From an uncultured Gammaproteobacteria bacterium (GTDB lineage Bacteria > Patescibacteriota > Patescibacteriia > Magasanikbacterales > GWA2-37-8): DNA of 64,000 nt. Where the stretch lies: assembly GCA_964535515.1 (NCBI GenBank), contig CAZHTA010000005.1:13-64012 (forward strand), given 5' to 3'. The position numbers and the translations under genes are program-made. The notes below the pieces were generated by a model. That model was not told where the DNA came from. It did not search any database and was given only the letters and a program-made list of their open reading frames with translations. This document shows, in pieces, positions 24,716 to 41,336 of the stretch. Each line of letters starts with the position of its first letter. Position 1 is the stretch's first letter.

Positions 24716-25294
24716 ATGTTTATGTTAAATAAAAAATATTTACAGGTTTTACGTGGTCAGGTGCTTGGTTATGCGGTTAAACGCCGGGAGGTGATAAAGA
24801 TAGCCGGAGACGCCCAACACCACGCTAAAAGGGCAATTTTTGGCTTCCAGAGGGACGATAAGAAGGCAGGGGAGGAATCCATGCGTTCAGCCAATGCCCT
24901 CTTGCTAGAGCTTAATAAAAAGTTCAAGGGTGATAAAGCACTTTTTGACGAGGGGTCATATTTAGCCGCTACGGAAGAGTATGTTGAAGCATATTTATTT
25001 CAACAATTTTGGTTAGGCAAAGAACTAGGGAAGATAACGGGTCTCATTGTTGATGCTGACACATACATTGGTGGTTTGTGTGATTTACCAGGTGAATTGT
25101 ATCGTTATGCCATTAAATCAGCTACTGCTAAGAATTTTGTTATGGTAGAAAAGTGCTATAAAGTATCCGAGGAGATTATTGGTGAATTAATGGATATGGA
25201 TTTGACTGGGTACAACCGCAACAAGTTTGATCAGGCAAAGGGTGCGTTGCATAAATTAGAACAAGTAGTATACGAAGTGAGTTTGCGTAAGTAA
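24716..25294 (+). CDS. hypothetical all-alpha protein (possibly translin-like)
   Basis: 192 aa; weak resemblance to translin family only; low certainty. Confidence 0.45.
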   Translation: MFMLNKKYLQVLRGQVLGYAVKRREVIKIAGDAQHHAKRAIFGFQRDDKKAGEESMRSANALLLELNKKFKGDKALFDEGSYLAATEEYVEAYLFQQFWLGKELGKITGLIVDADTYIGGLCDLPGELYRYAIKSATAKNFVMVEKCYKVSEEIIGELMDMDLTGYNRNKFDQAKGALHKLEQVVYEVSLRK

Positions 25295-25298
25295 AATT

Positions 25299-26606
25299 AT
25301 GTTGGTGAAGTATTTAAAAAAATTAAAACATTTTTTAATTGCCGTAACAGCATATTGGTATTACGGCCGTCCGGCACGTAAATTAATTGTTGTTGGTGTT
25401 ACTGGCACCAAAGGTAAGTCAACGACTTGTCGGTTAGTTGCTTCGGTTTTAGAAGCGGGTGGTTTTAAGGTTGGTTTGCTTTCAACGGTTGAGTTTCAAA
25501 TTGATGATAAAAGATTTCCTAATGACAAGAAGATGACGATGTTGGGTTTGGGTCAAATTCAAAAGATGTTACGAGAAATGGTTAAAGCCGGTTGTAAATA
25601 TGCGGTAGTAGAAACGTCTTCTGAGGGTATCATGCAATATCGTCATTATGGTTTGAATTATGACATTGCGGTATTTACCAATTTAGGCACAGAACATTCT
25701 GAACGTCATGGTGGTTTTGAAAATTTAAAACAAGATAAAGGAAAAATGTTTGCAGCTTTGAATGTTAAGCGTAAAAAAATTGGTGGTAAGATAGTACCTA
25801 AAGTGATTGTTGTTAATGTTGATGACCAACATTCTGATTACTATTTAAATTTTCTCGCGGATGAGAAGTGGGGCTTTGGTTTAGACGCTAGCAAAGAGAA
25901 GGGGTTAGGAGATCGAACGATTAGGGGTGAAATAGTTGGGAGTGAATCCGGTCGTTCACAGTTTTTAGTTGGTGGTGAAAAATACAGTCTAAATATTATC
26001 GGTGATTTTAATGTTTACAATGCGTTGGCGGCAGTAGCGGTTGGTAAGTCACAAGGGTTAAACCCAATTCAAATTGCCTCTGGACTAGAGAGTGTTAAGC
26101 AAGTTGAAGGGCGGGTGGAATTCGTTGATTGTGGTCAATCTTTTAAAGTGGTAGTTGATTATGCACATGAACCAATGAGTTTGGCAGCTTTGTTTAAAAC
26201 CTTAAAAAGTTTGGTTGCTAAAGATAATGGTAAGGTCATTGCGGTTATCGGTTCTGACGGTGGGGGGAGAGATGTGAGTAAACGTGGGAAAATGGGGAAA
26301 GTGACGGGAGAGATGGCGGATATTGTAGTAGTAACCGATGTAAATTGTTTTGATGAAGATCCAAAGGCGATTGCGGAGATGTTGGCGGCGGGGGCGCGCG
26401 AAGCAGGAAAAGTGGATGGCAAGGATTTGTTTATCGAAGTTGATCGCCGCAAAGGGATAGAACTCGCGATTAAGTTAGCTCATCCAGGGGATGCGGTGGC
26501 AATTACTGCTAAAGGCACTGAACCATGCTTAGTGGTAGCGGGCGGCAAAAGATTACCTTGGGATGATCGAGTAGTTGCTAAAGAAATATTACAATCATTT
26601 AAATAA
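25299..26606 (+). CDS. Mur ligase family protein (MurE/MurF-like ATP-dependent amide ligase)
   Basis: P-loop VTGTKGKSTT typical of Mur ligases, central and C-terminal Mur ligase domains; 435 aa. Confidence 0.65.
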   Translation: MLVKYLKKLKHFLIAVTAYWYYGRPARKLIVVGVTGTKGKSTTCRLVASVLEAGGFKVGLLSTVEFQIDDKRFPNDKKMTMLGLGQIQKMLREMVKAGCKYAVVETSSEGIMQYRHYGLNYDIAVFTNLGTEHSERHGGFENLKQDKGKMFAALNVKRKKIGGKIVPKVIVVNVDDQHSDYYLNFLADEKWGFGLDASKEKGLGDRTIRGEIVGSESGRSQFLVGGEKYSLNIIGDFNVYNALAAVAVGKSQGLNPIQIASGLESVKQVEGRVEFVDCGQSFKVVVDYAHEPMSLAALFKTLKSLVAKDNGKVIAVIGSDGGGRDVSKRGKMGKVTGEMADIVVVTDVNCFDEDPKAIAEMLAAGAREAGKVDGKDLFIEVDRRKGIELAIKLAHPGDAVAITAKGTEPCLVVAGGKRLPWDDRVVAKEILQSFK

Positions 26607-26611
26607 TACAT

Positions 26612-27283
26612 ATGTCTTTAGAAAAAAAGATTCAACTACGTCCAAGTGAAGAGATCAATTTAGTTGTTCGTCGTTCAGGCGCGACTTTTGCTTGGCGATA
26701 TATTTTGGGCTTTGGTATTTTATTTGCCACTGCTTTTTACTTGTTTTGGTTTTTGTCTCAAGGGTGGTGGGGGACAGCAGTTGTTAGTTTGGGTTTTTTA
26801 GTGGGCGTGTATGTGATATTTCATGCTTGGTTTTTTTGGAAAAACAATATGTTGGTGGTAACCGACGAACGGGTGATTGATATTAATCGTTTAGGTTGGT
26901 TTGAGGAATTAATTTCAACTGCCGCTTACAATGATATTAAAGATATCTATCTTCATCGTAAAGGTTTTTTTGCCAGTATTTTTAATTACGCCACCGTGGT
27001 AATTGAAAGCAAAAGCCAGCGGGCGTTATTAGAATTGCCAGCTGTATCTGAGCCAGAGAAGGTTTTGGCTTTGGTGTTGGACAAAAATGATCAGTATGAA
27101 AGTCGTCGGGGTTTACTAAAAAAGCAGGCGGTCTATGAGCGATTTCTACAAATTGTTCCTGAACTTTCAGAAGCAGAGTTGTGTGAGGTGTTAGACTTGG
27201 TTGATTTGCGTTTGGCTAATATGGCTAGTGAAGTGACGGAAGTGCCGATTGAGGTTGATGAAGATGAGGAAGAAGTGGTATAA
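26612..27283 (+). CDS. membrane protein with bacterial PH-like domain, acidic C-terminus
   Basis: Two TM helices then YdbS/bPH-like region; 223 aa. Confidence 0.45.
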   Translation: MSLEKKIQLRPSEEINLVVRRSGATFAWRYILGFGILFATAFYLFWFLSQGWWGTAVVSLGFLVGVYVIFHAWFFWKNNMLVVTDERVIDINRLGWFEELISTAAYNDIKDIYLHRKGFFASIFNYATVVIESKSQRALLELPAVSEPEKVLALVLDKNDQYESRRGLLKKQAVYERFLQIVPELSEAELCEVLDLVDLRLANMASEVTEVPIEVDEDEEEVV

Positions 27284-27332
27284 TTACCACATATTCCTAA
27301 TTGGGGAAATTTTGGTATTTAAGTAATTTGTT

Positions 27333-27740
27333 ATGCCAACCGGAGGGAAAAATCATTGGCAAAAAATATTTGGATCACGCTGGTTTTTACTGGTACTTTT
27401 AGTGGTCGCAATTTTTGTGGCGGTTGCTTATTGTCGTGCTTATTATCGTGATTATCAAGTGCGGCAAGAGATCGCTCGTTTGCAAGACGAAGTTAAAAAA
27501 TTAGAGTCAAAGAAAATTGAGACGATGGAAATTTTGCAATATGTAAAATCTAGTAGTTTTATTGAAGAAAAAGCGCGAACTGAGCTTAATTTGATTAAAC
27601 CAGGCGAGAAGATGGCGATTGTTGCCTCAGGGACTAAAAGTGAGAGTGGTGAGTTAGGCAAAGCCAAGGATTACAGTTCGGATTTGCCTAATCCGACTAA
27701 GTGGTGGCGTTTCTTTTTTGGGGGCTTGCGCAGTAAGTGA
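27333..27740 (+). CDS. FtsB/DivIC-like septum formation initiator
   Basis: Single N-terminal TM followed by coiled coil (IARLQDEVKKLESKKIETMEIL) and ELNLIKPGE motif typical of FtsB family. Confidence 0.55.
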   Translation: MPTGGKNHWQKIFGSRWFLLVLLVVAIFVAVAYCRAYYRDYQVRQEIARLQDEVKKLESKKIETMEILQYVKSSSFIEEKARTELNLIKPGEKMAIVASGTKSESGELGKAKDYSSDLPNPTKWWRFFFGGLRSK

Positions 27741-27787
27741 TAATTTTGTATAATTTAAAAACTTATTAATTAACTTTCATTTTTCCT

Positions 27788-28810
27788 ATGGAGAATCTAG
27801 TACCTAGCACTGATCAGGAGGTTGGTGTTAAACAAAACAAAGAACAGAAGAACATGAAAATGTTTTTGTACGGTTTGGGTGGTATAGTCCTAGTTGCAAT
27901 ATTGGCAGCAGCGGTGGTTGGGGTATATCGTGCCTATGCTAAAGGAGCAACTGATACTTACACTGTGACTGTTGCAAAGATATTACGTTTGCCAGTAATG
28001 AAGATTAATGGTGAAGTTGTACGCTATGGTGAGTTTGCTGATGATATGAAAGCGATTAAGATTATGCGTGAATACGAAAAGGCAAACAATGGTCAGAATG
28101 CTAATTTAACTGACGAACAGTTAACTGATCAAGTGTTGTGGCGTTTAGCTAATGGTGTCTTGGTTAAGCAAGGAACCTTAGAGTACAATTTAAAGATCGA
28201 AAAAGATGATATTGATCGTTTGAAAACTCAGTTGTTGCAGAATTTCAAAAGTACTGATGAGTTAGACAAAGAATTAATGCAGCGCTATGGTTGGGACTTG
28301 GCTACCTATGAAAAGAAAGTAATGAATACTTTTGTTTTGCAATCTAAGTTATCTGATGCCTTGGCAGCAGATGAAAAGTTAAAGGGTCAGGTTAAAGTTC
28401 AGGCACAGGCGGTATTAGACCAAATTAAAGCTGGAGCAGATTTTGCCGCAATGGCAAAACAGTATGGTCAGGATGGTACGAAAGATAACGGTGGTGATCT
28501 AGGATTTTTTGCCGCCGGAGAAATGGTGCCACAGTTTGAAATAGCAGCCTTTGCTTTAAAGCCAGGTGAGATGACCCAAGAATTAGTGGAAACCGATTAT
28601 GGTTATCATATTATTAAAGTAGTAGAGAAAAAGACTGAAAAAGTAAAAGATGAAGCTGGTAAGATGGTTAACAAGGAACAGGTACGTGCTAGTCATATCC
28701 TTTTCCGTTTTCCAGCAGTTGATACATACTTGGATGGTTTGGCAAGAAAGTCAGCAATTCATTTGTATGTGAGAGTGCACAACCCATTCACTGAGGTGTT
28801 GGGGAAATAA
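27788..28810 (+). CDS. peptidyl-prolyl cis-trans isomerase, parvulin (PpiC/SurA/PrsA-like) with N-terminal TM anchor
   Basis: Rotamase motif GGDLGFFAAGEMVPQFE...DYGYHIIKV; 340 aa. Confidence 0.75.
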   Translation: MENLVPSTDQEVGVKQNKEQKNMKMFLYGLGGIVLVAILAAAVVGVYRAYAKGATDTYTVTVAKILRLPVMKINGEVVRYGEFADDMKAIKIMREYEKANNGQNANLTDEQLTDQVLWRLANGVLVKQGTLEYNLKIEKDDIDRLKTQLLQNFKSTDELDKELMQRYGWDLATYEKKVMNTFVLQSKLSDALAADEKLKGQVKVQAQAVLDQIKAGADFAAMAKQYGQDGTKDNGGDLGFFAAGEMVPQFEIAAFALKPGEMTQELVETDYGYHIIKVVEKKTEKVKDEAGKMVNKEQVRASHILFRFPAVDTYLDGLARKSAIHLYVRVHNPFTEVLGK

Positions 28811-28846: not shown

Positions 28847-28917
28847 GCGGGATTAGTACATTGGTAGTATACGTCCTTCCCAAGGATGAGAGGCCAGTTC
28901 GATTCTGGTATCCCGCT
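28847..28917 (+). tRNA. tRNA-Gly (anticodon CCC)
   Basis: Manual fold: acceptor GCGGGAU/AUCCCGC, anticodon stem CGUCC/GGAUG loop UUCCCAA, T-loop UUCGAUU. Confidence 0.75.
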
Positions 28918-28935
28918 CAATTTAGTAAACAAAAA

Positions 28936-29132: not shown

Positions 29133-29483
29133 CTAGACGATCAGCGTGGTGCCGACGGAGCGGGGGTCGCGGATTTTCCGCACCCTACCTTCCTTGCTGG
29201 TGGCGACGAAGGTGTACGGGCTGGTCCAGGTCCAGACGACCTGGAAGAGGCTCCCTGTCGGCGCCTGTTGGGCGAAGCACATGATGCCGCTGTCCTTACC
29301 GTCGGTCCTGGGGACCAACAGGTCGCCGTCGCGAACGAGCCGGATGTAGGTCTTGAGCTGCGGTCCCGACTCCGGCGAGCTGGGCTTCCGGCTCGTGCGG
29401 AAGAAGGTCACGTCGGGCGGCAGCTTGAACAGGGCGCCCTTTTGGAACGGGAACGACGAGGTCGGGGTCGGTTGGTCGGACAT
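29133..29483 (-). CDS. hypothetical protein in GC-rich foreign-like cassette 4
   Basis: 116 aa, high GC3, GGAGGA RBS 5 nt upstream of ATG, minus-strand TTGACA-17-TAATAT promoter at about 29548-29576. Confidence 0.5.
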   Translation of the reverse strand: MSDQPTPTSSFPFQKGALFKLPPDVTFFRTSRKPSSPESGPQLKTYIRLVRDGDLLVPRTDGKDSGIMCFAQQAPTGSLFQVVWTWTSPYTFVATSKEGRVRKIRDPRSVGTTLIV

Positions 29484-29524: not shown

Positions 29525-29806
29525 ATGAGTGTTGGTGAGGATATTAATGCTTTTTTTACAATTTGTCAATATTTCCCATTGCGGTTAATGTATTTTTTTG
29601 ATAAAATATTAATGCTTATGAAGACAAAAATAAATCAGAAGCAACAAGAAGAACTACAAAAACTAGAGAAGTGGTTTGATTTGGAGTTAATAAAATTAAA
29701 GAAAAAGCGAATCGAGATTTTAAAGCGTTATGATAAAAAAAGGTCATTGTTGTTTCAGAATAAAATATTAAAACATATTAGTGGTATAAAGACAGAAACA
29801 TATTAA
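29525..29806 (+). CDS. small Lys/Glu-rich coiled-coil protein (true start probably internal Met near 29614)
   Basis: ORF track 93 aa; first third overlaps minus-strand promoter of cassette 4, so a downstream start is more plausible. Confidence 0.4.
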   Translation: MSVGEDINAFFTICQYFPLRLMYFFDKILMLMKTKINQKQQEELQKLEKWFDLELIKLKKKRIEILKRYDKKRSLLFQNKILKHISGIKTETY

Positions 29807-29808
29807 AT

Positions 29809-32800
29809 ATGCCAGATGAAGTAGAGGACAACCAAGAGTTGGCGGTTGAACAGGATGGTGCACCTATAGAAATATTTGAGGGTCCATTCACTAATGAGAC
29901 TGAAGTTGATTTTGAAAATTTAAGAGCTGGGGCTGAGGTTGCTGAAGAAACTGCTAGGCAAGCAGAAGATTTTGTTATACAAAATCAAGACAAACCAGAG
30001 TTTGTCGAAGAAGTGCAAGCGATGGTTGAAGTAAAGACTGAGGCCAAAGAAATCAAATCTGGGTTTTTGCGTGGGTTAGATAAGATTTTTGGTGGCGTAA
30101 AGGAGAAGCTTAAGGGAGGTTTAGAAAAATCAGTTAAGGTTGATGATGAAAAAGTTATTGCTAGTTTGCACGCGAAATTAAATAAACTTCAGGTTGCTTT
30201 GCTTACAAAGAAGACTGATTTTTTGAAAAAAGTTGCTAAAAAATTAGGGACGAAATATTATTCAATACCAAAAAAAGAAGAAGAAAAAGCAATGACGGAA
30301 TTTTCTTATGGCAAAGAAAGTGGGGATGAATTTTTGGAATTACTTGATTTACATAAAAAAGCAGAAAAAAGTGACTATAAAAAATGGGAAAAAGCGGAAG
30401 AAGTTCTTTTGAGGGTTGCCAGGGACTTGATTTACAGCGCTTTAAGAAAGGGAAATCTAGAAGCAGCGTTAAGATTGTATGACCGATTGCCTGATTTGTT
30501 GGGTCTTAGTGAGATTTCAGAGAGGATAGTAATGTTTGTAGATGATCAATTCAAAGAAGAATATGATAAAAATGAAGGATATTTTGATTCAGAGAAAGCT
30601 CGTTTTGAGAACAAAAGAAAAGCGCGGATAAATTTCTTTAAAGATAAATTAAAATTTCGTCCAGATTTACGATTTTCAACATTTTTTATTAATGATCCGT
30701 ATTATCGAGGAGGTGGATTGGAATGCGTTGATGATGCTCAGCTGGGTGTTTTTAAAGATATTATTATCAAAGGCAATCGTGATTGTATATTAGCAAAATT
30801 TTCACCAACTGAAAAAATGACCGAAGAGGAGGTTGACAGGTTGTTCGAAGCGTATAGGAGGTTTGATAAAAACAAAATATTAAATAATATTGATCGTTTA
30901 AAAAGCAGAGTTGAAAAGTTGACTGATGCGGAGAGAGATGATGTAATTTTGCCTTTAATCGAAAATGGTGCGTGTTTGAACAATCCGGGTTTTGAACAGT
31001 ATTTACGTTTTTTCCCACTGACTAAAGCACAGACACGAGAGTTTGTTCACAAATTTTGGGATTATTATGAACCGTCAGATAATAAAACTAAAGATGAAGA
31101 CAAAAGAAAATGTATTGAACATTTGTCAATTAATTTTCCACAGATCTTTTTATTTGATTCAAATTTGGAAAAGATGAGTAATGTTTTTGAGTGGCCGTTA
31201 ACGGCAATAGATCAAAAGAAAGTGATTAGATATTGTTCTGGCGGTTTAGATGAAAGAGGAAATCTTAATGGGGATATTGATAATTTAAAGATGGTTATTG
31301 ATCGTAACAAAGAAGACTGTTCAGGATTGGGGGATATAGAAAGAGAAAATGCGTTATTAACTTATGTAAATTTACACCGAAGTTTTGGTTCGATTGATTA
31401 TGAACGTTTGTTTGGCGCTCTAGATAAAGCATCAGATGATGTTAGGGGAAAAATAATTCTAGAACTTAAAACTAAAAGGGCTTTAGAGGTTGTAGTTTTA
31501 GGTTTTGAATTTTTAAAACCCGAAGAACAAAAAAGCTTTTTAAGTTCTGATATGTTGGATGCACGCAAGCTTTTGGGCGTGTTTTATAATGGTGATAGTA
31601 GTGTTGATGGTGTTATGTATATAATTAATGGTTTGCATTTGTCAAATACAGAAAAGAAAAATATATATAGCCATTTGTTTGGTGATCTTACGAGTATTGA
31701 TCAAATAAAGTTGCTTAATACTTTTTATAAATATACAAATTCTAAAAAAGAATTAGAAGATTATTTGTCAGCCAATATTTCTGGGGTGTTAGGAAATTTA
31801 GATTTACTCGGTTATTTATCAAGTATTGGTAATGGGATTTATCCGGATATTGATTCGTTAAGTGCTGAAGATAGAGATTTTTTGACGTTAGCGCAAAATT
31901 TTCGAGCTTCGAAAAATCAACGTGATCTTTGGACGAGAATTGATCATGATGGTATAAACAGAGTTGAATGTAATGAAGGAGAGGTTGTGGCCACAAAAAA
32001 GGCAGATAGATTTGAAAGTAGAGTTTTAGCAAAAATTTTAGATGAAATGGGGTTGTCCACAGTCGAAAGAGATAAGCTTATAAATACGTTGATCTCTAGC
32101 CCTATCAGTGTTAGTGAGAGGTGTTGTGGTAAGCTCTCGGAATATTCGTCGGCTGAATTTTTTGATATCACTTTATTATCACAAGATAAGGGTGGAATTT
32201 TAACAAATGAACAATTTAATAAAATGGTGGATGGATTGTTGGTAAGCAGGCCAGATACTGTTTATGAAATATATATTGAAATTGGTGCTACTGCAGAAGA
32301 GAAAAAGCGATTGGCATTGGCGTTAGTAGAACATAATCCAAAATATTTATTGTCTCTTCATTTAAAAGGCGGAGATGTTTTGGAATTGATTTCTTTTTTA
32401 CCTCATCAAAAACGTTTAGACGCGATTAAAGAAATGGAAGTCGAAGAGCTTGTGAGTATTTTAGGTCAAGGACAGGGAGTAGTTTTTGGCCAGTTTGATC
32501 AAAGCGAGAGAGGCGCGGTTGTAGACAAACTATCGAAAGACAAACCGGAATTTATTTATGTTCTATACGAGAGTGTAGGTGTAATTTCTTCGGAAGAAAA
32601 AAAACAATTAGCGGAATCTTTTTTAAAGGTTAATCCTGTATATTTATTTCAAAAATATGTTGAGGGTAGTGATGGGATGGGTATAATTTATGGTTTGGAA
32701 AATTTGGATGAGATAATAGATAAGGTTGCGGAGTTTGACCCAGCTTTGGTGTTTATACATCGCAAGTTTTTGAATCTTGATGAAAAAAGACGTTTAGAGT

Positions 32801-34938
32801 TAATGAGACAAATGAGTCCTGATAAGCTAGTTTGGGTTTGTGTCGCAGAGGATGGTACAGAAAAAGATCCGCTTGAACAATATGAGCGAGACGAAATATT
32901 GCTTAAGTTATTAGATGGGTACCCAGAATTCGTTTATAATATGTATGTGCAGATTGGTAAAATAACACCAGAGCAGAGTCGGGGGTTAGCTGCTTCATTT
33001 TTATTACACAAACCCGAGTATCTTCTCCGGCTTTTTGTGTCAGGTCAAGATACGCTTGATGTATTTAATAATTCTTTTAATAGGAACGAATTAGTAGATA
33101 AGTTTATTGCGGTTTATCCAAGTTTAGTTTTTGAACATAGGGGTAAATTAAATCTTAGTGCGGAAAAGCGTATTGCGTTAATTGCATATATGCATCCTAG
33201 AGATATTGCCAATGTTATTCTTAATGTTAACGATGAAGGAAATAAATTTGCTAGTTTTGAGCAATATGAAAAAGATGCTATTTTAAGTAGATTTTTTAAT
33301 CAGGCTGCTGGGGAGTTCGTTAATTGTCGTAAAGAGTTTGGTTTGGGTGACTTAGATGGTATTCTTAAGATTAGGGATTTAAATATTTTTGGTGCTTATG
33401 AAGAGAAGATAAGTGCTGAAGTTCGTGAAAACATGGTGATCAGAACACAACAATTGTTATGTGCGGCGACTTTTTCAGATAGTATCGGGGATAAAAACTA
33501 TGAGTATTTTGATCAATTTGAAGTTGATGAAAATGAAAGTAAGAATTCAGTATTTTTTCGTGAATTTGTTGAGAAATATCCAATTGGTAACAAGGGGAAA
33601 ACCATTCTTGTTTTGTGTGCGGCTAAAGCATTTGAGGCTGGCGCTACTGCCGGTGAGGTGGTCGCCAACATTAGGCATGAGGTGGAATCTTATGAAAAGG
33701 TTATTGATAGATATGCGAGCTTAGATATTCCGACTGGTTTGCGTGCGTCTATGGGGACAGAATATGAAATTACGAAACCTAATAGTGAGGGCCACCGAGA
33801 AAGATTTGGAATGGACCTGAAGTCTAATATCATGAGTCTTAGTATGTTAGCGGAGGTGGGTCAGGGTCGTGATGCAGTACATGAAATTGCTACAAAACCG
33901 ACTGACAATCCGGCTTTGCTTTTGGCGGAAATGCATTTATTGCAAGAATTAGGATTTATTGATTTAAACTTTAATGAATATACTAAAGGGAGCCGCGGTT
34001 ATCATTTAACTATTGGTGGCGCACACGGTTTGCGAAACAGCAGGGATACTCGTTTTCTGTTAAATACATTAGTTATGTCTGGTTGGGCAGGTATAAACGC
34101 TGGTAAAGTAATTGGCGCTGTAAGCAGTGGTAGAAACATCCCGATTAGAGACCGTGGTTTTGGTGGAGTTCAAGTATTTAAGGGTGATACGCAATCAACC
34201 GAACTACGTAGTGTGTCTATTGATGCTTGGGAACCGTTTGAAAGAACGATTTTGACTAGTTATTTCTCTAGTATTGCTATTCAGACAATGAATAAATATT
34301 GTCCGGTTGAAGATTTGAAGGACTTTCTTGATGATCCAAGATTGTTGTCTGATTGGAGTGATAATTTTATTAGTAATCGTTCGTTGTCGGGAAGTGATTT
34401 GGAGGAGAGTAGCAAAATAGTAGAGATTGTTGGTGCATGGGTAAAATTGATGAGTGATGCAAAAGCAGCGGTAGATTACCATAATGAAAATTTTCCAACC
34501 GAAGCTTATAATGAAGAAGTTTATCGACAGATGGATGAGGCGACCATGGGAGAGAACTTTGAAAAAAAATTAGATATTGATCCAGCAGAGTTGTTTAGTG
34601 ATTTAACTCCGGAGTTTATTAATCGTTTGACGATGATTACTAATTTGTTTATTAAGCCATCTTTGAAAAGTGGCGGAGACACCGTAAATGCTGCGGCAAT
34701 ATTGTCAACTACTAAGATTGGTAAAAAGAATGGTGAAGAGTACGTGGAAGAAAGCCGGAGAACCCAATATAGTTCAATGTTTGATAGAGGTGAAAGTCGA
34801 CAGGGGTATTATTATGTTCAAAATGGCAGTCAGGAAATGATTATTCATAAAATTCAACAGTTATTGTTAGAGTTTAATCAGCGAATGCAGAAGGTTTTAT
34901 CGCGTTCGAATGCTGCTGTAATAGCGAAGGCGGCTTAA
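29809..34938 (+). CDS. giant protein (1709 aa) with internal ~100-aa repeats; function unknown
   Basis: Long uninterrupted ORF with backbone-like codon usage; three repeats of module ...PEF(V/I)Y..Y..(I/V)G.I..E....LA.SFL...P.YL... Confidence 0.8.
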   Translation: MPDEVEDNQELAVEQDGAPIEIFEGPFTNETEVDFENLRAGAEVAEETARQAEDFVIQNQDKPEFVEEVQAMVEVKTEAKEIKSGFLRGLDKIFGGVKEKLKGGLEKSVKVDDEKVIASLHAKLNKLQVALLTKKTDFLKKVAKKLGTKYYSIPKKEEEKAMTEFSYGKESGDEFLELLDLHKKAEKSDYKKWEKAEEVLLRVARDLIYSALRKGNLEAALRLYDRLPDLLGLSEISERIVMFVDDQFKEEYDKNEGYFDSEKARFENKRKARINFFKDKLKFRPDLRFSTFFINDPYYRGGGLECVDDAQLGVFKDIIIKGNRDCILAKFSPTEKMTEEEVDRLFEAYRRFDKNKILNNIDRLKSRVEKLTDAERDDVILPLIENGACLNNPGFEQYLRFFPLTKAQTREFVHKFWDYYEPSDNKTKDEDKRKCIEHLSINFPQIFLFDSNLEKMSNVFEWPLTAIDQKKVIRYCSGGLDERGNLNGDIDNLKMVIDRNKEDCSGLGDIERENALLTYVNLHRSFGSIDYERLFGALDKASDDVRGKIILELKTKRALEVVVLGFEFLKPEEQKSFLSSDMLDARKLLGVFYNGDSSVDGVMYIINGLHLSNTEKKNIYSHLFGDLTSIDQIKLLNTFYKYTNSKKELEDYLSANISGVLGNLDLLGYLSSIGNGIYPDIDSLSAEDRDFLTLAQNFRASKNQRDLWTRIDHDGINRVECNEGEVVATKKADRFESRVLAKILDEMGLSTVERDKLINTLISSPISVSERCCGKLSEYSSAEFFDITLLSQDKGGILTNEQFNKMVDGLLVSRPDTVYEIYIEIGATAEEKKRLALALVEHNPKYLLSLHLKGGDVLELISFLPHQKRLDAIKEMEVEELVSILGQGQGVVFGQFDQSERGAVVDKLSKDKPEFIYVLYESVGVISSEEKKQLAESFLKVNPVYLFQKYVEGSDGMGIIYGLENLDEIIDKVAEFDPALVFIHRKFLNLDEKRRLELMRQMSPDKLVWVCVAEDGTEKDPLEQYERDEILLKLLDGYPEFVYNMYVQIGKITPEQSRGLAASFLLHKPEYLLRLFVSGQDTLDVFNNSFNRNELVDKFIAVYPSLVFEHRGKLNLSAEKRIALIAYMHPRDIANVILNVNDEGNKFASFEQYEKDAILSRFFNQAAGEFVNCRKEFGLGDLDGILKIRDLNIFGAYEEKISAEVRENMVIRTQQLLCAATFSDSIGDKNYEYFDQFEVDENESKNSVFFREFVEKYPIGNKGKTILVLCAAKAFEAGATAGEVVANIRHEVESYEKVIDRYASLDIPTGLRASMGTEYEITKPNSEGHRERFGMDLKSNIMSLSMLAEVGQGRDAVHEIATKPTDNPALLLAEMHLLQELGFIDLNFNEYTKGSRGYHLTIGGAHGLRNSRDTRFLLNTLVMSGWAGINAGKVIGAVSSGRNIPIRDRGFGGVQVFKGDTQSTELRSVSIDAWEPFERTILTSYFSSIAIQTMNKYCPVEDLKDFLDDPRLLSDWSDNFISNRSLSGSDLEESSKIVEIVGAWVKLMSDAKAAVDYHNENFPTEAYNEEVYRQMDEATMGENFEKKLDIDPAELFSDLTPEFINRLTMITNLFIKPSLKSGGDTVNAAAILSTTKIGKKNGEEYVEESRRTQYSSMFDRGESRQGYYYVQNGSQEMIIHKIQQLLLEFNQRMQKVLSRSNAAVIAKAA

Positions 34939-34948
34939 TTATTATTGT

Positions 34949-35353
34949 ATGAGCAGAAGAGAGTTTCCATCATATTTAAGGTTAGTACAACCAGATGAAG
35001 TACCTAGTACTAATCCTGATAGTTTGCCAGTTTCTAATTTTAGTTCGGTAGATATTTTAAATTTGCCCGATGATACAGTAAATGACATGTATAAAAGATA
35101 TTCTACTTTTCCGGTTGCATTTGATTTTTTAAATCGATTAAGTGATTGGGAATTAAAAAGAGGTTTGTCTAAAACAGATAAGGGGATATTGTTTGTTATG
35201 GCTATGACCGCACAGTCACTTAATAATACGGGTTTATTTAGTGCTTTGAGAGCTTTTATAGTTAAAGGTGAACCGCTTATAGAAAATAATCTAGTTGAAT
35301 TTGGTGGTAAAATTAAGGACTATTTATTAAATTTAAAAATTGAAAAAGAGTAA
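34949..35353 (+). CDS. hypothetical protein
   Basis: 134 aa ORF immediately after giant gene. Confidence 0.45.
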   Translation: MSRREFPSYLRLVQPDEVPSTNPDSLPVSNFSSVDILNLPDDTVNDMYKRYSTFPVAFDFLNRLSDWELKRGLSKTDKGILFVMAMTAQSLNNTGLFSALRAFIVKGEPLIENNLVEFGGKIKDYLLNLKIEKE

Positions 35354-35380
35354 TTATTTTAATATTTTATTATAAACCTT

Positions 35381-37318
35381 ATGGACGAAAATCAAATCCA
35401 ATCAAATACTTTGGTTAGTGAACCGGTTGTGGCAGAAGCTCCTCCCGTAGTTGTGATGCAGGATGTGCCGGTGGTTAAGAAAAAGAATGTTTTAAATTCT
35501 GCTCTTTTTCCGCTTTTAGCGTTTCTTTTGATTGGTTTGGTATATATGGCAGTTTATGCTTTTATAAAGCCCGTAGCTAAAGATATTGTTAACGAGACAA
35601 TCGCTAAAATATTTAAAAATTACGGGATGTATTTTGGTTGGGTTTTTGCTTTGTTGTCTTTGGTGATAATGTATGTTTTGTATTTAATTAAAAAAATAGT
35701 TAGATTAGGTAAATTTCAAATAACTAATCCGATTATTTTAATTGCATCACTTTTGCCTTGGTATTTTTTTGCTAAACAGTTGCTTTTTCATGAAAAACGT
35801 TATACGGATATTGCCCGAGGGATAATCACTTATGTTGGCTTGCCATTACTGTGGGTGGTATATATTGTGGCGGGCATAGCTTTAGTTTGGTTTGTTGTTC
35901 TGGCGATTGTGAAATTACTCAAAAGAAAAGATTTGGCAAATAAAGCGGCTTTAGTGTTGTTTGTTGTTTTTGCCCCGTTTGTTTTAACAGGTTGTGTTGG
36001 TGATCTTCAAGCAATGTTGTGTGATTTTTTACCTGATAGCGATCATTGTTTTCAAGGAGCAGCTGTCCAAGAAGGGGACGCAGATGGTTGTGAAAAAGTT
36101 TCGGGAGAGAAATTTAAGGATGTTGGCTCTAATCCACCACGTGACAAGTGTTATTTGCAGATTGCAGAAAATACCGGTGATTTGGAAGCTTGTAAAAAAA
36201 TTAAAGGTGGGCCAATGTCATATGATAAAGATGAATGTATTTTAAGCACCTCTTTGGCCTATGAAAATCCAGCGGGTTGTAAATTGTTGTCGGGAGCGAA
36301 TAAAACAAAATGTTTATCGGAGTTTGGCATGCGTACTACCTACGACAAAGTTTTGGAGGTAGACGACCAGATTCAAATTTTAAAAGATAGTTTAAAAAAT
36401 GGTTCAGATGCGGAAATGGAAAAGCAGTTAAAAGGTTTGGAAGAAAAACGAACTGACATGCTTGGGGTGATGACAAAAATCAATCGTACGGAATATGAAA
36501 AAATGAGTGATCCAACGAATCGAGAAATTATTGGTGATTTTGCTGTTGGTGATATTGATAGTGCTACTAAAGAAAAACTTTTAGCCTTTAATGCTTCGTT
36601 AAAGAAGCAGGGGCTAGCTTTGACCGCAAGTCAGTATGATTCTTTTAAAGAATACTATAAATTTGTGAATGATCCTGATAATGATATTGAGAAGATGAAT
36701 GATTCGGAGATTGTAAAGAATCGTTGGAATGAAAAAGTTGGTAATGTAGTTGATGCAATGAAATTTTGGAAAACTAATGATACCAAAGCTGAGGAAAGTG
36801 CTGATCAGCAATTACGTTTTTATCAACGCATGTTAGAGCGTCAGGCGGCTATTGCCAAAGGGATGAGTGATTTGCAACAGGATGTCGATAGGAATATGGA
36901 TATGGTAATTGAAGCAGGCAAAGACAAAGCCAAGGATATTTTGAAAGACAAGGTGATTGAGGGTTTGTTTGGCGAAATTACTGGTAAAACTGTTGGTATT
37001 ACTACAGCGGTATTAGGTGAAGCAATAGACACGGTTAAAGCCGAAGCCAAATCAGCTGAGTTTAGAGGCTTGGTAAATGCCTATAACTCTGGCATGTCTG
37101 AAGAAGTGGGTAAATTTGGCGGTGATGTTGAAAAGGCACATGCGGAAGTTATTAAGAAATTGATGGCTGATCCATATACATATGCAAGTGGCAATTCGTT
37201 TGCTAAGTATGGTAACTTAATAGAAAATAAAGATTGCGATGGTACTAATCCGCATTGTTTAAATAAAGAGGTATTTTGGAAGGCGATGAAAAAGTCGTAT
37301 AAATATCAACATCAATAG
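35381..37318 (+). CDS. multi-pass membrane protein with Cys-rich and coiled-coil extracytoplasmic region
   Basis: 645 aa, about 6 N-terminal hydrophobic helices, Cys-rich segment, Lys/Glu-rich C-terminal half. Confidence 0.55.
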   Translation: MDENQIQSNTLVSEPVVAEAPPVVVMQDVPVVKKKNVLNSALFPLLAFLLIGLVYMAVYAFIKPVAKDIVNETIAKIFKNYGMYFGWVFALLSLVIMYVLYLIKKIVRLGKFQITNPIILIASLLPWYFFAKQLLFHEKRYTDIARGIITYVGLPLLWVVYIVAGIALVWFVVLAIVKLLKRKDLANKAALVLFVVFAPFVLTGCVGDLQAMLCDFLPDSDHCFQGAAVQEGDADGCEKVSGEKFKDVGSNPPRDKCYLQIAENTGDLEACKKIKGGPMSYDKDECILSTSLAYENPAGCKLLSGANKTKCLSEFGMRTTYDKVLEVDDQIQILKDSLKNGSDAEMEKQLKGLEEKRTDMLGVMTKINRTEYEKMSDPTNREIIGDFAVGDIDSATKEKLLAFNASLKKQGLALTASQYDSFKEYYKFVNDPDNDIEKMNDSEIVKNRWNEKVGNVVDAMKFWKTNDTKAEESADQQLRFYQRMLERQAAIAKGMSDLQQDVDRNMDMVIEAGKDKAKDILKDKVIEGLFGEITGKTVGITTAVLGEAIDTVKAEAKSAEFRGLVNAYNSGMSEEVGKFGGDVEKAHAEVIKKLMADPYTYASGNSFAKYGNLIENKDCDGTNPHCLNKEVFWKAMKKSYKYQHQ

Positions 37319-38064: not shown

Positions 38065-38121
38065 GTGAGTATGCTTAATAAAAAGTATCAATTTTTAAAG
38101 GCACACAAAAGAAAGAAATCA

Positions 38122-38149
38122 GAATTTCCCTGTTGGGAAATTTTTTTTA
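38122..38149 (+). terminator. terminator hairpin 1 in leader region
   Basis: aatttccc-tgtt-gggaaatt + T8. Confidence 0.65.
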
Positions 38150-38171
38150 TAACCAACAATATTAATTCACT

Positions 38172-38199
38172 AAATCCTCCGTTTCCCGGAGGATTTTTT
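38172..38199 (+). terminator. terminator hairpin 2 in leader region
   Basis: aaatcctccg-tttccc-ggaggat + T6. Confidence 0.65.
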
Positions 38200-38288: not shown

Positions 38289-39293
38289 ATGGATACATCA
38301 GTTATTAAATTAACCGATCGAGTTTTGCAAGGCGCACGAGAATATTTGATTCAGAATGGTTATACGGAAGTCGTAACACCGCGCATTGTTAAGGCATCAG
38401 GTGCTTGTGAGAATATCAACACTTTGTTTGAGGTTTCATCAGATAAGGATGATCGTTGGTTTGATGGTCACAAAAGTTATTTGGCACAAACTGGTCAGTT
38501 GTATCTTGAGGCTTTAGTGCCAAAGTTAGGTTGTGTATATTGTGTTGGTCCTAGTTTTCGTGCGGAGCCGAAGGTAGACAAAAGGCATTTAACGGAGTTT
38601 TTGATGATTGAGATTGAACATCCAGGTGGTTTTGATCGGTTATTAGAATATATCGAAGGCATGCTTTATCATGTAGCGCAAATAGTTGCAAATGACCCAA
38701 AGGCAGTTGACGTCTATGGTATTACAGATGAAACTATTGTCCGATTAGCTTCGTGCACTAAAGTGTTTACTAAACTTACCTATGACCAAGCAATTAATAA
38801 GTTAAAGAGTTTGGGCGAAAAAATTGAATGGGGCGATGATATATCTTCAGCACAAGAGAGTGTCTTAGTATGGGAGAATAAAAATCAGCCGTTGTTTATT
38901 ACCAGATTTCCTGATCCGATGTGGAAGTTCGATAAGGATATTGAAGTGGAAAAATTTTTTAACATGTTGCCCGACCCGGAAAATCCGGGTCGTGTTTTAT
39001 CTGCTGATTTAATCTTGCCTTTTGGTGGGGAAGCAGTAGGTTCAGCAGCACGAGCGCATGAGGCCGATGTTCTGCGGGCAAGATTGGAGAACTCAAGAAT
39101 GTTTAAGCGTTTAGTGGAACGAGGGGGAAGCATTGAAGACTTTGAGTGGTATATTAACCAAGTTGAAACGAACGGTGCTGTACCACACGCAGGTTGTGGT
39201 TTTGGTATGGCCAGAGTAATACAATGGTTAAAAGGGGAGACTGATATTCGTAAGGCTGTGGCGTTTCCTTCTAACAAAGAGATTTTAGTATAG
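38289..39293 (+). CDS. class II aminoacyl-tRNA synthetase catalytic-core homolog lacking anticodon-binding domain (AsnA-like aspartate-ammonia ligase, archaeal AS-AR type)
   Basis: Motif 2-like GPSFRAEP, motif 3-like GCGFGMARVIQWL; 334 aa with no N-terminal OB fold. Confidence 0.55.
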   Translation: MDTSVIKLTDRVLQGAREYLIQNGYTEVVTPRIVKASGACENINTLFEVSSDKDDRWFDGHKSYLAQTGQLYLEALVPKLGCVYCVGPSFRAEPKVDKRHLTEFLMIEIEHPGGFDRLLEYIEGMLYHVAQIVANDPKAVDVYGITDETIVRLASCTKVFTKLTYDQAINKLKSLGEKIEWGDDISSAQESVLVWENKNQPLFITRFPDPMWKFDKDIEVEKFFNMLPDPENPGRVLSADLILPFGGEAVGSAARAHEADVLRARLENSRMFKRLVERGGSIEDFEWYINQVETNGAVPHAGCGFGMARVIQWLKGETDIRKAVAFPSNKEILV

Positions 39294-39342
39294 TATTAGT
39301 TGGCGGTTATTAGTTTGGGTTAAATGTTAGGGTAGTTATAGG

Positions 39343-39375
39343 AAAAAATCCGCTTGTTTTAAAGCGGATTTTTTG
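39343..39375 (+). terminator. Rho-independent terminator
   Basis: aaaaaatccgctt-gtttta-aagcggatttttt. Confidence 0.7.
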
Positions 39376-39404
39376 TTAATATTACTACGTTAATATATTT
39401 TTAT

Positions 39405-41336
39405 ATGCGTTTTAGATTATTATCATTTTTAGGCTTGTTGTTTGTTTTTGGTGGGTTGGTATTTGTTGGGCCAGTTAAGGTGGTTGAAAATCGTAGTTAT
39501 TTTTATGATGGTATAGATGTTGAAGCGGTGGTGAATCAAGATACTACGGTAGATATTAGAGAAAGGCAATCGTACGTTTTTGTAGGCGAATATCATAAGG
39601 GATGGAGAAGTATTCCTTTGCGTAAAATTGATGCGATTACCAATATTCAGGTTTTAGATGGTGTGACCAATCAACCGTTGACGTATTCTTGGCGTACTTT
39701 AGAAAAAACTGATCCAGCAAGTTGGGGTAAATATACCTACCGTCGTAACGGTGGTAATGTGGAGATTGAATGGTATTACAATGCCAAAGACGAACAAAAG
39801 ACCTGGATAATTGAATACAAAGCGCATGGTGCATTAGAGTTTTTAAAAGATAATGATAGGTTCTATTGGAATTTATTTACTGATTATGAAGTACCAGTAG
39901 AAGCGGCGAGTGTTAAAGTATATTTACCAGAAAATGCTAATTTGTCAGTCGCGGGTTGGGAAATATATCCATCAGGGGGCGTGGCGGCAGTTTCTTCATT
40001 TGACAGTAGTCAGGGTTATTTTTATGCTTCTGGCGAAAATTTTCCTCCTCAGGGCATGTTGACAGTGAATCTTTTCTGGCCAAAGGGAGCGGTAAACCGT
40101 TCAGCATATTGGTCAGATTTTTGGAAATTAAAGTATGGTTATATTATCTCAATATTTTTATTAATATTAACTTTTTCAATTGCTATTATCCGCTGGTTAA
40201 TGGTTGAACGTTTAGTTAAAGGGCGAGGTACAATTGTGCCGCAGTATGAACCACCAAAAGGAATGTCTCCGGCGGAAATGCAAGTAGTGTTAAAAGAGAG
40301 TGTGAATAGTCGAGCGCTGGCAGCGACGATTATAGACTTGGCAGTGAGGGGCTATGTAAAAATTGAAGAAGAGCCACCAACTGCTTGGCATAAAATGTTG
40401 GCGAAAGCAACGGTTGGTCTGTTTGCTGCTATTTTTATCTTACTTTTTATTGGTATTTGGTATTTTGGATCAGGAAATTCTATTAGTTTGTTTTTTGTTG
40501 CAGTAGCAGCGCTTATTTGTTTTATCATATTGCAGAAGTTTAAAACCGGACGTTACGGGCGTGATTATCGAATTGTTAAAACTGAAAAGGATAATAGTGG
40601 TTTAAAGGATTATGAGAAGAAATATTTGGATGCACTTTTTTGGTATGGAAGTGAATATTTTTCTACTCGCGAAATGCGTTCGTCTTCTAGTTCTTCTCGA
40701 GCGGCGGCGATGCAAAAAAATATTTTAGAATTGCGAGAAGATATTTACAAATCAGTTGACCCGGATAACAAGTTTTATGAAGTCTCACCGTTAAAAGAAA
40801 AAATCAAATGGGGTGTTTGGATTTTGTCTGGGATTATTATTGTTATTTGTTTGTCTGCGGGAGGAAGTTGGTTTTTTAGTTTAGCACAATATTGGTACAT
40901 TGTTTTTTCTTTAGTAATATTTGGTTCTTGTTTATTTGTATATTTTAAATACGAAGCTCGTTTAAGTCAGGCGGGTAGAGAGCTTAAAGAAGAGATCTTA
41001 GGCTTTAAAATGTATTTGTATTCTGCCGAACGGTATCGTTTGCAAAATCTTACGCCCGATATTTTCGAGAAGTATTTACCATACGCAATGGTGTTTAAGA
41101 TCGAAAAACAGTGGGCAAAGACTTTTGTTTCGAGAGACGTTAGCCAGCCTTCTTGGTATTATACTGGGTATTATGGTTCGGATTCCTCGGTACCGTCAGT
41201 AGCCACATTTTCGGCTACTGCCTTTAGCGCTAGTTTTGTTTCATCTTTTCCCGCCTCCTTTTCAGGTTGGTCGGGGGGGGGGTGGGGGGGGTTTTGGGGG
41301 GGGGGGGGGGGGGGTGGGGGAGGCGGTGCAAGTTAG
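39405..41336 (+). CDS. DUF2207-like membrane protein with Gly-rich C-terminus
   Basis: Signal/TM, extracytoplasmic beta-rich N-domain, several TMs, C-terminal GGGWGGFWGGGGGG tail as seen in DUF2207 family; poly-G DNA tract 41270-41330. Confidence 0.6.
   Translation: MRFRLLSFLGLLFVFGGLVFVGPVKVVENRSYFYDGIDVEAVVNQDTTVDIRERQSYVFVGEYHKGWRSIPLRKIDAITNIQVLDGVTNQPLTYSWRTLEKTDPASWGKYTYRRNGGNVEIEWYYNAKDEQKTWIIEYKAHGALEFLKDNDRFYWNLFTDYEVPVEAASVKVYLPENANLSVAGWEIYPSGGVAAVSSFDSSQGYFYASGENFPPQGMLTVNLFWPKGAVNRSAYWSDFWKLKYGYIISIFLLILTFSIAIIRWLMVERLVKGRGTIVPQYEPPKGMSPAEMQVVLKESVNSRALAATIIDLAVRGYVKIEEEPPTAWHKMLAKATVGLFAAIFILLFIGIWYFGSGNSISLFFVAVAALICFIILQKFKTGRYGRDYRIVKTEKDNSGLKDYEKKYLDALFWYGSEYFSTREMRSSSSSSRAAAMQKNILELREDIYKSVDPDNKFYEVSPLKEKIKWGVWILSGIIIVICLSAGGSWFFSLAQYWYIVFSLVIFGSCLFVYFKYEARLSQAGRELKEEILGFKMYLYSAERYRLQNLTPDIFEKYLPYAMVFKIEKQWAKTFVSRDVSQPSWYYTGYYGSDSSVPSVATFSATAFSASFVSSFPASFSGWSGGGWGGFWGGGGGGGGGGAS

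Follow-up and report, generated by a model that had tools for sequence, protein, structure and literature searches.

A giant protein of a Patescibacteria-type genome with a predicted glutamine-synthetase-fold ligase domain at its C-terminus

What might a protein of 1709 amino acids do in a genome of the Candidate Phyla Radiation (CPR)? Genomes of the CPR, or Patescibacteria, are small, and no function has been assigned to many of their genes, including those for large proteins. The giant protein considered here is encoded on the plus strand of a 64,000-nucleotide stretch of contig CAZHTA010000005.1 (the window), within a run of five open reading frames (ORFs). The initial annotation of this locus had proposed a dedicated surface or secretion module. 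Our reading, to which we assign a probability of about 0.65, is instead that of a cytoplasmic multi-part protein which consists of a C-terminal ligase of the glutamine synthetase (GS) fold and a variable N-terminal extension, and which is accompanied by small partner proteins. This turns a giant hypothetical protein into a testable enzyme hypothesis, with E1318, E1320, E1359, H1399, E1465 and R1467 as candidate catalytic residues.

Predicted fold and conserved residues of the C-terminal domain

The family was defined by an exhaustive HMMER search in which residues 511-1709 were compared with 1.84 billion representative proteins at E ≤ 1e-3. The search returned 173 matches, 133 of them at E ≤ 1e-30, and all fell within the last ca. 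500 residues of the protein (about 1200-1700), with none on the tandem repeats that precede this region. The domain was covered entirely in 125 members, and in each of these it ended at most 16 residues from the C-terminus of a protein that in most cases was 1000-1850 amino acids long. The exhaustive search was needed because word-indexed homologue searches were nearly blind to the family (2, 6 and 6 matches). When the whole protein was used in such a word-indexed search, the giant protein itself and one relative (P0002, 1778 amino acids) were recovered; the two are homologous over residues 1204-1697 only, at 37% identity.

Residues 1245-1709 were modeled with AlphaFold from 23 diverse members, which gave a predicted local distance difference test score (pLDDT) of 85 and a predicted template modeling score (pTM) of 0.90. 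A first model calculated from 8 sequences was mediocre (pLDDT 69), and its Foldseek list was already headed by glutamine synthetases. With the second model, the top 27 Foldseek matches in the Protein Data Bank (PDB) were all carboxylate-amine ligases of the GS fold. Glutamine synthetases 5dm3 and 4lnn were matched at a probability of 0.98-1.0 with E-values of about 2e-3 (lowest 1.9e-3), YbdK entries 1tt4 and 1r8g at 0.97 and 0.66-0.69, respectively, and PafA (4bjr) at 0.94 over 484 aligned columns. Glutamate-cysteine ligases (GCL) and creatine kinase appeared lower in the list. Among the predicted viral structures of BFVD, most of the named top matches were phage proteins labeled 'Amidoligase enzyme', with probabilities of up to 1.0. 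The advice of the initial annotation to examine the C-terminal 400 amino acids proved sound.

The strands of the model and the alignment of 125 sequences were tested against the superfamily definition of Iyer, Burroughs and Aravind (2008, PMC2588565). According to this definition, the fold has a core of six strands, strands 3 and 6 are each followed by a conserved helix, and the sheet (order 2-3-1-4-6-5) forms a saddle with the active site on its concave face (PMC2588565). The motifs comprise GhExE or Ex[EH] on strand 1, acidic residues on strands 2 and 3, [HD]x[NH] on strand 4, an Arg on strand 5 together with an Arg in the loop before it, and Ex[RK]x2D on strand 6. The GhExE signature is described there as a mark of the ligase superfamily that sets it apart from the guanido kinases (PMC2588565). 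In our model the strands cover residues 1313-1321, 1352-1353, 1358-1361, 1397-1404, 1446-1449 and 1463-1470. Helices at 1368-1380, after strand 3, and 1474-1497, after strand 6, are present as the definition requires. Residues 1245-1305, ahead of strand 1, are predicted to be helical, as is the C-terminal half of the domain.

The conserved residues of the family fall on these strands. Strand 1 carries G-T-E1318-Y-E1320, which in the family reads G-h-E-Y-E, with h being M, I, L, V or T. Both glutamates are invariant (125/125), Y1319 is present in 121 of the 125 sequences and G1316 in 114, while 10 more have Trp at the latter position in what are probably mistranslated code-25 sequences (see below). 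The hairpin of strands 2 and 3 contributes D1355 (107/125, 86%) and the invariant E1359 (125/125), both within the segment G-x-D-A-V-H-E-I-A-T-[KR]-P. On strand 4 H1399 is found in all 125 sequences and is followed at position +2 by Thr (75 sequences, including the window's protein), Ser (41) or Asn (9). Strand 5 has the pattern I-[RH]1447-x-[RK]1449, where position 1449 is Arg in 68 and Lys in 51 sequences (95% together) and position 1447 is Arg in 77 and His in 24; in the loop before it, R1442 is Arg in 57 of the 76 sequences that are ungapped there. Strand 6 carries E1465-L-R1467, with E1465 invariant (125/125) and position 1467 occupied by Arg (81) or Lys (44) throughout. At the start of the helix that follows, D1472 (122/125, 98%) and E1475 (124/125, 99%) are nearly invariant. 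The initial annotation had recognized no motif in the protein and thereby missed this set (GhExE, HEIAT.P, GYHLTIGG and ELR). From the modeled fold and these residues we predict that the C-terminal domain of ca. 460 amino acids is an ATP-dependent amide-bond-forming enzyme of the GS fold.

Another conserved element, G1260-x-K1262-G1263-x-T1265 (Lys 94%, Gly 87%), is located at the start of a helix ca. 55 residues before strand 1 (window positions 33574-33591, residues 1256-1261, to 33603, residue 1265). It is not a Walker A motif.

Distribution of the family and its N-terminal extensions

A pattern-limited scan of one genome per GTDB species gave 33 loci or species genomes. The informatively named records among these relatives are all Patescibacteria (Doudna-, Nomura-, Magasanik-, Falkow- and Kerfeldbacteria, Paceibacterota and Microgenomates), in agreement with the initial description of a largely uncharacterized giant protein of a CPR-type genome. 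Many third-party assemblies with relatives are titled 'uncultured Gammaproteobacteria', which we suspect to be a submitter default. No relatives were found in the viral contigs of IMG/VR, and a phage or mobile origin was rejected on this ground. Within what was searched, the family is found only in genomes of the CPR/Patescibacteria type. With at least 173 sequence clusters it lies outside the four domain libraries searched (Pfam, NCBIfam, PHROGs and PADLOC). It is an unannotated family within a known enzyme superfamily, and literature searches found no description of a GS-fold ligase at the end of a variable protein of 1000-1850 amino acids.

In three members (P0133, P0119 and P0118) Trp occupies almost every conserved Gly column (e.g. 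'SIWLEYEV' and 'WSRWLHITCWWEYW'). These sequences probably originate from code-25 lineages (Gracilibacteria/Absconditabacteria), in which UGA encodes Gly, and were translated with UGA as Trp. The substitution suggests that the family probably extends to recoded CPR lineages. A Microgenomates ORF of 3390 amino acids (L035:890-11062) matches the ligase core only weakly and in part (29% over query residues 146-310, E = 5e-11) and may belong to a branch of the family that is degenerate or more remote.

The region preceding the domain is of a different nature. It contains tandem protein repeats (Table 1), of which the second and third share 37% identity (E = 1e-27) over a unit of ca. 126 residues. 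The shorter copy ahead of them carries a deletion of ca. 28 residues (E = 3e-9), and of a fourth copy only the first ca. 30 residues are present, at about positions 1140-1170. The core motif reads PEF[IV]Y..Y..[IV]G.I[ST].E....LA.SFL...P.YL. When the protein was compared with itself, the best 40-residue diagonal scored 88, whereas 10 shuffles gave scores of at most 46. The internal repeats reported by the initial annotation are thus real, with two full copies, a shortened third and the start of a fourth, but their unit is ca. 126 rather than ca. 100 amino acids. No tandem repeat was seen at the DNA level in the repeat region, which suggests that the duplication is old. The initial annotation had also stated that homology to an enzyme family spanning the repeats would speak against its interpretation. 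The similarity to enzymes was found C-terminal to the repeats, and the repeats themselves had no relatives among the 1.84 billion representative proteins.

For residues 1-809 the only relatives were weak ones, P0023 (E = 3.5e-11 over residues 115-387) and P0032. Across the family the N-terminal regions fall into mutually unrelated clusters, with 32, 27, 18 and 17 members. Six representatives taken from different clusters gave no Pfam domain in this region. At least 15 of the 112 members have internal repeats of their own, and the periods of these, from 34 to 407 amino acids, are unrelated. In view of the divergence between clusters and the unrelated repeats of other members, the repeats in the window exemplify in one lineage what is general in the family, namely an N-terminal extension that is variable and repeat-prone, placed before an invariant C-terminal domain. 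The N-terminal ca. 1000 residues are remodeled lineage by lineage, and the predicted C-terminal ligase is the invariant element of the family. The N-terminal region of P0007 (749 amino acids) consists of an array of ca. 36-residue repeats ('ERVQEAAVKGIIHCL..GDIV.AK.IREEFGVS'), illustrating how greatly the extensions differ between members. Weak winged-helix/helix-turn-helix matches in Pfam (GntR, 6e-5; HTH_11, 9e-4) were obtained with one sequence of the 8-sequence alignment; these probably come from the repeats of P0007.

Partner proteins and possible function

Homologues of the window's neighbors were sought in 35 related loci, covering ±10 kb around the 34 that contain a family gene. Eight of these loci (L002, L003, L004, L007, L027, L030, L032 and L033) encode a soluble protein of ca. 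130-150 amino acids 3-13 nt after the giant gene, the ORF in L032 overlapping the end of the giant gene by 3 nt. A hidden Markov model (HMM) of the eight proteins matched the 134-residue ORF of the window with E = 1e-4, its sole match outside the training set among the ORFs of the window and the loci. The partner is present in about nine of the 35 loci. In five of the eight loci, the domain is among those with the highest identity to that of the window's protein. The 134-residue protein itself has no match in Pfam, NCBIfam or PADLOC. On the other side of the giant gene, a microprotein of 40-60 residues is encoded directly upstream in 11 loci (L001, L002, L004-L006, L008-L010, L012, L024 and L029). 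Its N-terminus is rich in Lys, and its motif reads L..[IL][IL].[DN]Y[KR].[ED]L..L. The 93-residue ORF of the window has the same position and a similar composition, with no significant similarity to the microprotein. Fusions of the microprotein or the 134-residue partner into other family members were not found. In L002 (2950-7787) the giant gene is split into ORFs of 668 and 663 amino acids, with partners of 56 amino acids upstream and 137 amino acids downstream, and a type IV pilus cluster (PilM, PilO, T2SSE, T2SSF and pilin) starts ca. 1.7 kb beyond.

The giant protein has neither a signal peptide nor a transmembrane segment (maximal 19-residue Kyte-Doolittle mean of 1.27), and because of this we take it to be apparently cytoplasmic. 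In the mechanism that we propose, the C-terminal domain would bind Mg-ATP via E1318, E1320, D1355, E1359, H1399 and E1465-x-R1467, with R1447 and R1449. A substrate carboxylate would be phosphorylated by the domain to an acyl-phosphate, and attack of an amine on this intermediate would yield an amide or isopeptide bond. The N-terminal ca. 1200 residues, which are fast-evolving, would recruit or position a macromolecular substrate or partner and have no part in the chemistry. The 134-residue protein would be a dedicated partner, either adaptor or substrate, and the upstream microprotein of the relatives would have a similar linked role. We infer the catalytic activity of the domain by analogy.

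Several observations weigh against a GS-fold ligase with dedicated partners. The Foldseek E-values are only ca. 1e-3 and the TM-scores ca. 0.25, with 260-350 columns aligned at a root-mean-square deviation of 8-12 Å; the low TM-scores indicate that the similarity is limited to the catalytic core. The strands were placed from the secondary structure of the model, and the fold was judged from the Foldseek scores. The strand-4 motif is H-x-[T/S/N] instead of [HD]-x-[NH], its first half being kept and its second replaced, and the strand-6 Asp is found at +7, not at +5. Pfam, NCBIfam, PHROGs and PADLOC gave no match for the domain with the proteins of the window and up to 30 family members. Sequence searches of the PDB with the single protein and two profiles were empty, apart from a chance match to an S-adenosylmethionine synthase at E = 2.5. 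Profile-profile comparison by hhalign was non-significant (E = 0.26-0.86) for each of three targets, namely the amidoligase of phage tf, YbdK of E. coli and eight aligned phage amidoligases. Around the giant gene, the HMM of the microprotein family misses the 93-residue ORF and shuffle tests were mixed, so that this ORF is at most a candidate member, and no neighborhood gene points to a substrate of the predicted ligase. Since the hhalign comparisons were non-significant, the domain is placed in the superfamily, on the evidence of its modeled fold and motifs, and in none of the named families.

Filing of the domain under Amidoligase_2 (PF12224) was rejected, as no match was obtained at E ≤ 10 with the window's protein and 30 members and the hhalign comparison (125 against 8 sequences) gave E = 0.26. 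The GS-like amidoligases of phages and bacteria that belong here, such as gp21 of Pseudomonas phage tf, have the same predicted fold without the beta-grasp N-domain. Their first strand is also of the GhExE type ('GFEVELEG' in tf, 'GTEYEIT' in the window's protein), and ATP-dependent amide ligation is predicted for both. A sequence relationship is not detectable, however, and the Pfam and PHROGs models, including the PHROGs amidoligase families, miss all 23 members tested. Moreover, the phage enzymes are 290-520 amino acids long and encoded beside genes for a glutamine amidotransferase and other COOH-NH2 ligases, whereas the domain described here forms the end of CPR proteins of 1000-1850 amino acids.

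Filing under GCS2/YbdK (PF04107) was likewise rejected, since there was no match in Pfam or NCBIfam and the comparison with E. coli YbdK was non-significant (E = 0.43). YbdK (1r8g, 1tt4) resembles the domain in fold and in having helical regions after the core, and in the non-significant alignment its 'GQHVHVG' segment is paired with the His strand. It differs in carrying H-x-H on strand 4, where the window's protein has H-x-T, and in being a stand-alone enzyme of ca. 370 amino acids. The best Foldseek E-values were those of glutamine synthetase (types I and II), of which the metal/ATP ligand set (E-x-E, acidic hairpin, His and E-x-R) is found on equivalent strands here. Unlike glutamine synthetase, the domain has a helical region instead of the beta-grasp N-domain before strand 1 and no match to the Pfam family Gln-synt_C. 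No sign of ring oligomers was seen in the present family.

If the giant protein is a GS-fold ligase with small partners, its substrate may be a protein or peptide. This is a guess, to which we give less than even odds; the dedicated small neighbors suggest a protein or peptide as substrate or adaptor. A substrate of this type would imply a new prokaryotic conjugation chemistry, whereas with a small-molecule substrate the family would extend the GS-fold ligase superfamily only modestly. The latter case, a metabolic ligase with gamma-glutamyl or amino-acid/amine specificity like YbdK, GCL or PuuA and an N-terminal region that is regulatory or structural only, is in line with the use of small molecules by the closest solved folds (GS, YbdK and GCL) and with the largely intact state of the catalytic motifs. 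We nevertheless regard it as doubtful. No small-molecule ligase of the superfamily is known to carry a rapidly diverging, repeat-prone extension of ca. 1200 residues. In addition, dedicated partner ORFs of small size are found repeatedly on either side of the gene. The family is also thinly spread, with 173 representative clusters and, by the pattern-limited scan, 33 species genomes, which suggests an accessory role and not one in core metabolism.

It is unlikely that the locus encodes an independently evolved, CPR-specific system for protein or peptide conjugation that resembles pupylation, in which the N-terminal scaffold would select targets and the small neighbors would serve as tag, substrate or adaptor. 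The comparison with PafA and Dop (4bjr), the actinobacterial Pup ligase and depupylase, is informative in this respect. The folds match, PafA is a GS-fold ligase that acts on proteins, and a very small protein is encoded beside the ligase, as in the relatives described here. PafA itself departs from the canonical motifs of the superfamily (PMC2588565). There is, however, no sequence match and no match to the Pfam family Pup_ligase, and PafA has ca. 480 amino acids without a giant extension. The microproteins also lack a conserved C-terminal Gly-Gly-Gln/Glu, or any conserved C-terminal residue, and no genes for a proteasome or Mpa/ARC were found in the neighborhoods examined.

A domain that has the GS fold and a different chemistry or none, i.e. 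a Dop-like amidase or deamidase, a phosphotransferase, or a pseudo-enzyme that acts only in binding as part of a large structural protein, appears distinctly unlikely. The hydrolase Dop and the guanido kinases do have this fold (PMC2588565), creatine kinase is among the weaker Foldseek matches, and the strand-4 motif is without its second N/H. The guanido kinases are disfavored by the ligase-specific GhExE signature (PMC2588565). The invariance of five residues in 125 sequences that share 30-45% identity points to a working active site rather than a pseudo-enzyme. As to Dop, sequence alone cannot separate a ligase from a hydrolase.

We consider it very unlikely that the protein is an effector or toxin of which the C-terminal enzyme domain modifies a target in a host or competitor cell, with the 134-residue protein conferring immunity. 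A giant protein with a C-terminal enzyme domain that is followed by a small soluble protein resembles a toxin-immunity pair, and the fast evolution of the N-terminal region could reflect an arms race. Polymorphic toxins, however, have a variable C-terminus and a conserved N-terminus, which is the reverse of the present arrangement. Furthermore, no trafficking domain or export signal was found, PADLOC gave no match, and the putative immunity protein is present in just the nine or so loci mentioned above.

Locus layout and flanking genes

All ORFs of the initial annotation are present at the coordinates that it described (Table 1). The five genes are on the plus strand, separated by gaps of 2, 10, 27 and 14 nt, and the tight packing noted for the downstream genes is borne out by the last three of these. 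Terminator-like hairpins occur at 38121-38196, after the cyclophilin gene, and none was detected before 38121 within the five-gene run; co-transcription of the five genes is possible for this reason. The composition of the giant gene had been called backbone-like. The gene is indeed not foreign, but it is slightly AT-rich, with a G+C content of 35% as compared to 38.5% for the whole window. An AT-rich promoter-like stretch spans the first ca. 30 codons of the 93-residue ORF, and its start is therefore likelier to be the ATG at 29618 or 29624, which would give a protein of ca. 60 amino acids.

Table 1. Coordinates of the giant-protein locus and its parts in the window
Feature	Position	Strand	Remarks
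Upstream Lys/Glu/Leu-rich ORF, 93 amino acids as listed	29525-29806	+	2-nt gap to giant gene
Giant protein, 1709 amino acids	29809-34938	+	
N-terminal region of giant protein, residues 1-809, acidic start	29809-32235	+	No known domain, nearly without relatives
Three tandem protein repeats	32236-33294	+	r1 810-910 (shortened), r2 908-1036, r3 1034-1162
Conserved C-terminal domain, residues ca. 1204-1709 and stop	33418-34938	+	Homology confined to this part; predicted GS-fold carboxylate-amine ligase
Predicted catalytic core, residues 1313-1477, six strands	33745-34239	+	From model strands and conservation in 125 relatives
Soluble protein of 134 amino acids directly downstream of giant gene	34949-35353	+	Conserved as a partner within the clade nearest to the window's protein
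Membrane protein, 645 amino acids	35381-37318	+	5 hydrophobic segments, then 9-Cys segment, then long polar region
Membrane-anchored cyclophilin, 233 amino acids	37333-38034	+	Pfam PF00160, 1.2e-48; N-terminal hydrophobic anchor

The membrane protein and the membrane-anchored cyclophilin that the initial annotation placed downstream were both recovered as such. No homologue of either was found within ±10 kb of any of the 34 related loci, and a linkage of the giant gene to these two genes was rejected. The PrsA-like isomerase, the Mur ligase and the remaining neighbors in the window did not recur in the related loci either. In the comparison of synteny that had been suggested, the small downstream ORF family recurs beside the giant gene and the membrane protein and the cyclophilin do not; the latter two look like incidental neighbors in a compact genome. 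A dedicated surface or secretion module, with the giant protein exported or displayed and acting together with the 645-residue protein and the cyclophilin, fares worst of the alternatives and is highly improbable: it could account for five tightly packed genes in one orientation whose first terminator-like hairpins lie beyond the cyclophilin gene, for two neighbors being membrane proteins and for the position of the L002 giant gene ca. 1.7 kb upstream of type IV pilus genes, but the giant, 93-residue and 134-residue proteins have no signal peptide or transmembrane segment, the two membrane proteins are not conserved at related loci, no Pfam trafficking or adhesin domain was found in the giant protein or six family representatives, and the conserved part is a predicted ATP-dependent enzyme fold of cytoplasmic type rather than an adhesin or secretion component.

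The 645-residue protein contains nine Cys at residues 205-311, spaced 9-20 residues apart. The segment had been described as CxxC-rich; the cysteines are clustered, but there are zero CxxC motifs. A lipobox-like 'LTGC' motif is found at residues 202-205, after the fifth hydrophobic segment. Both flanks of the locus contain genes of cell-envelope and housekeeping types. On the upstream side (24716-28810) these encode a Mur-ligase-like protein without its N-terminal domain, a bPH_2 membrane protein, DivIC and a PrsA/SurA-like peptidyl-prolyl isomerase. On the downstream side (38289-41336) there are a 334-residue protein that resembles class II aminoacyl-tRNA synthetases and comprises only their catalytic core, and a DUF2207 membrane protein that carries a poly-Gly tail.

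Between the upstream flank and the five-gene run, a 116-residue ORF is located on the minus strand (29133-29483). Its G+C content is 65.5% in a window of 38.5%, and that of its third codon positions is 91.5%; these values mark it as a true protein-coding gene that stems from a high-GC source. As an Rfam RNA this GC-rich stretch was rejected, since no family was obtained at the gathering score and the stretch is protein-coding. The ORF has no match in Pfam or PADLOC and no tblastn match in phages or plasmids. The exact protein sequence is missing from a collection of ca. 15 billion proteins in which neighboring ORFs of the same contig are present. The gene has a promoter-like site of its own (29569-29541) and a GGAGG Shine-Dalgarno sequence that precedes its ATG by 7 nt; a terminator-like hairpin is found at 28962-28932. 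The ORF adjoins a tRNA-Gly(ccc) gene at 28847-28918 and looks like a recent horizontal acquisition beside this tRNA.

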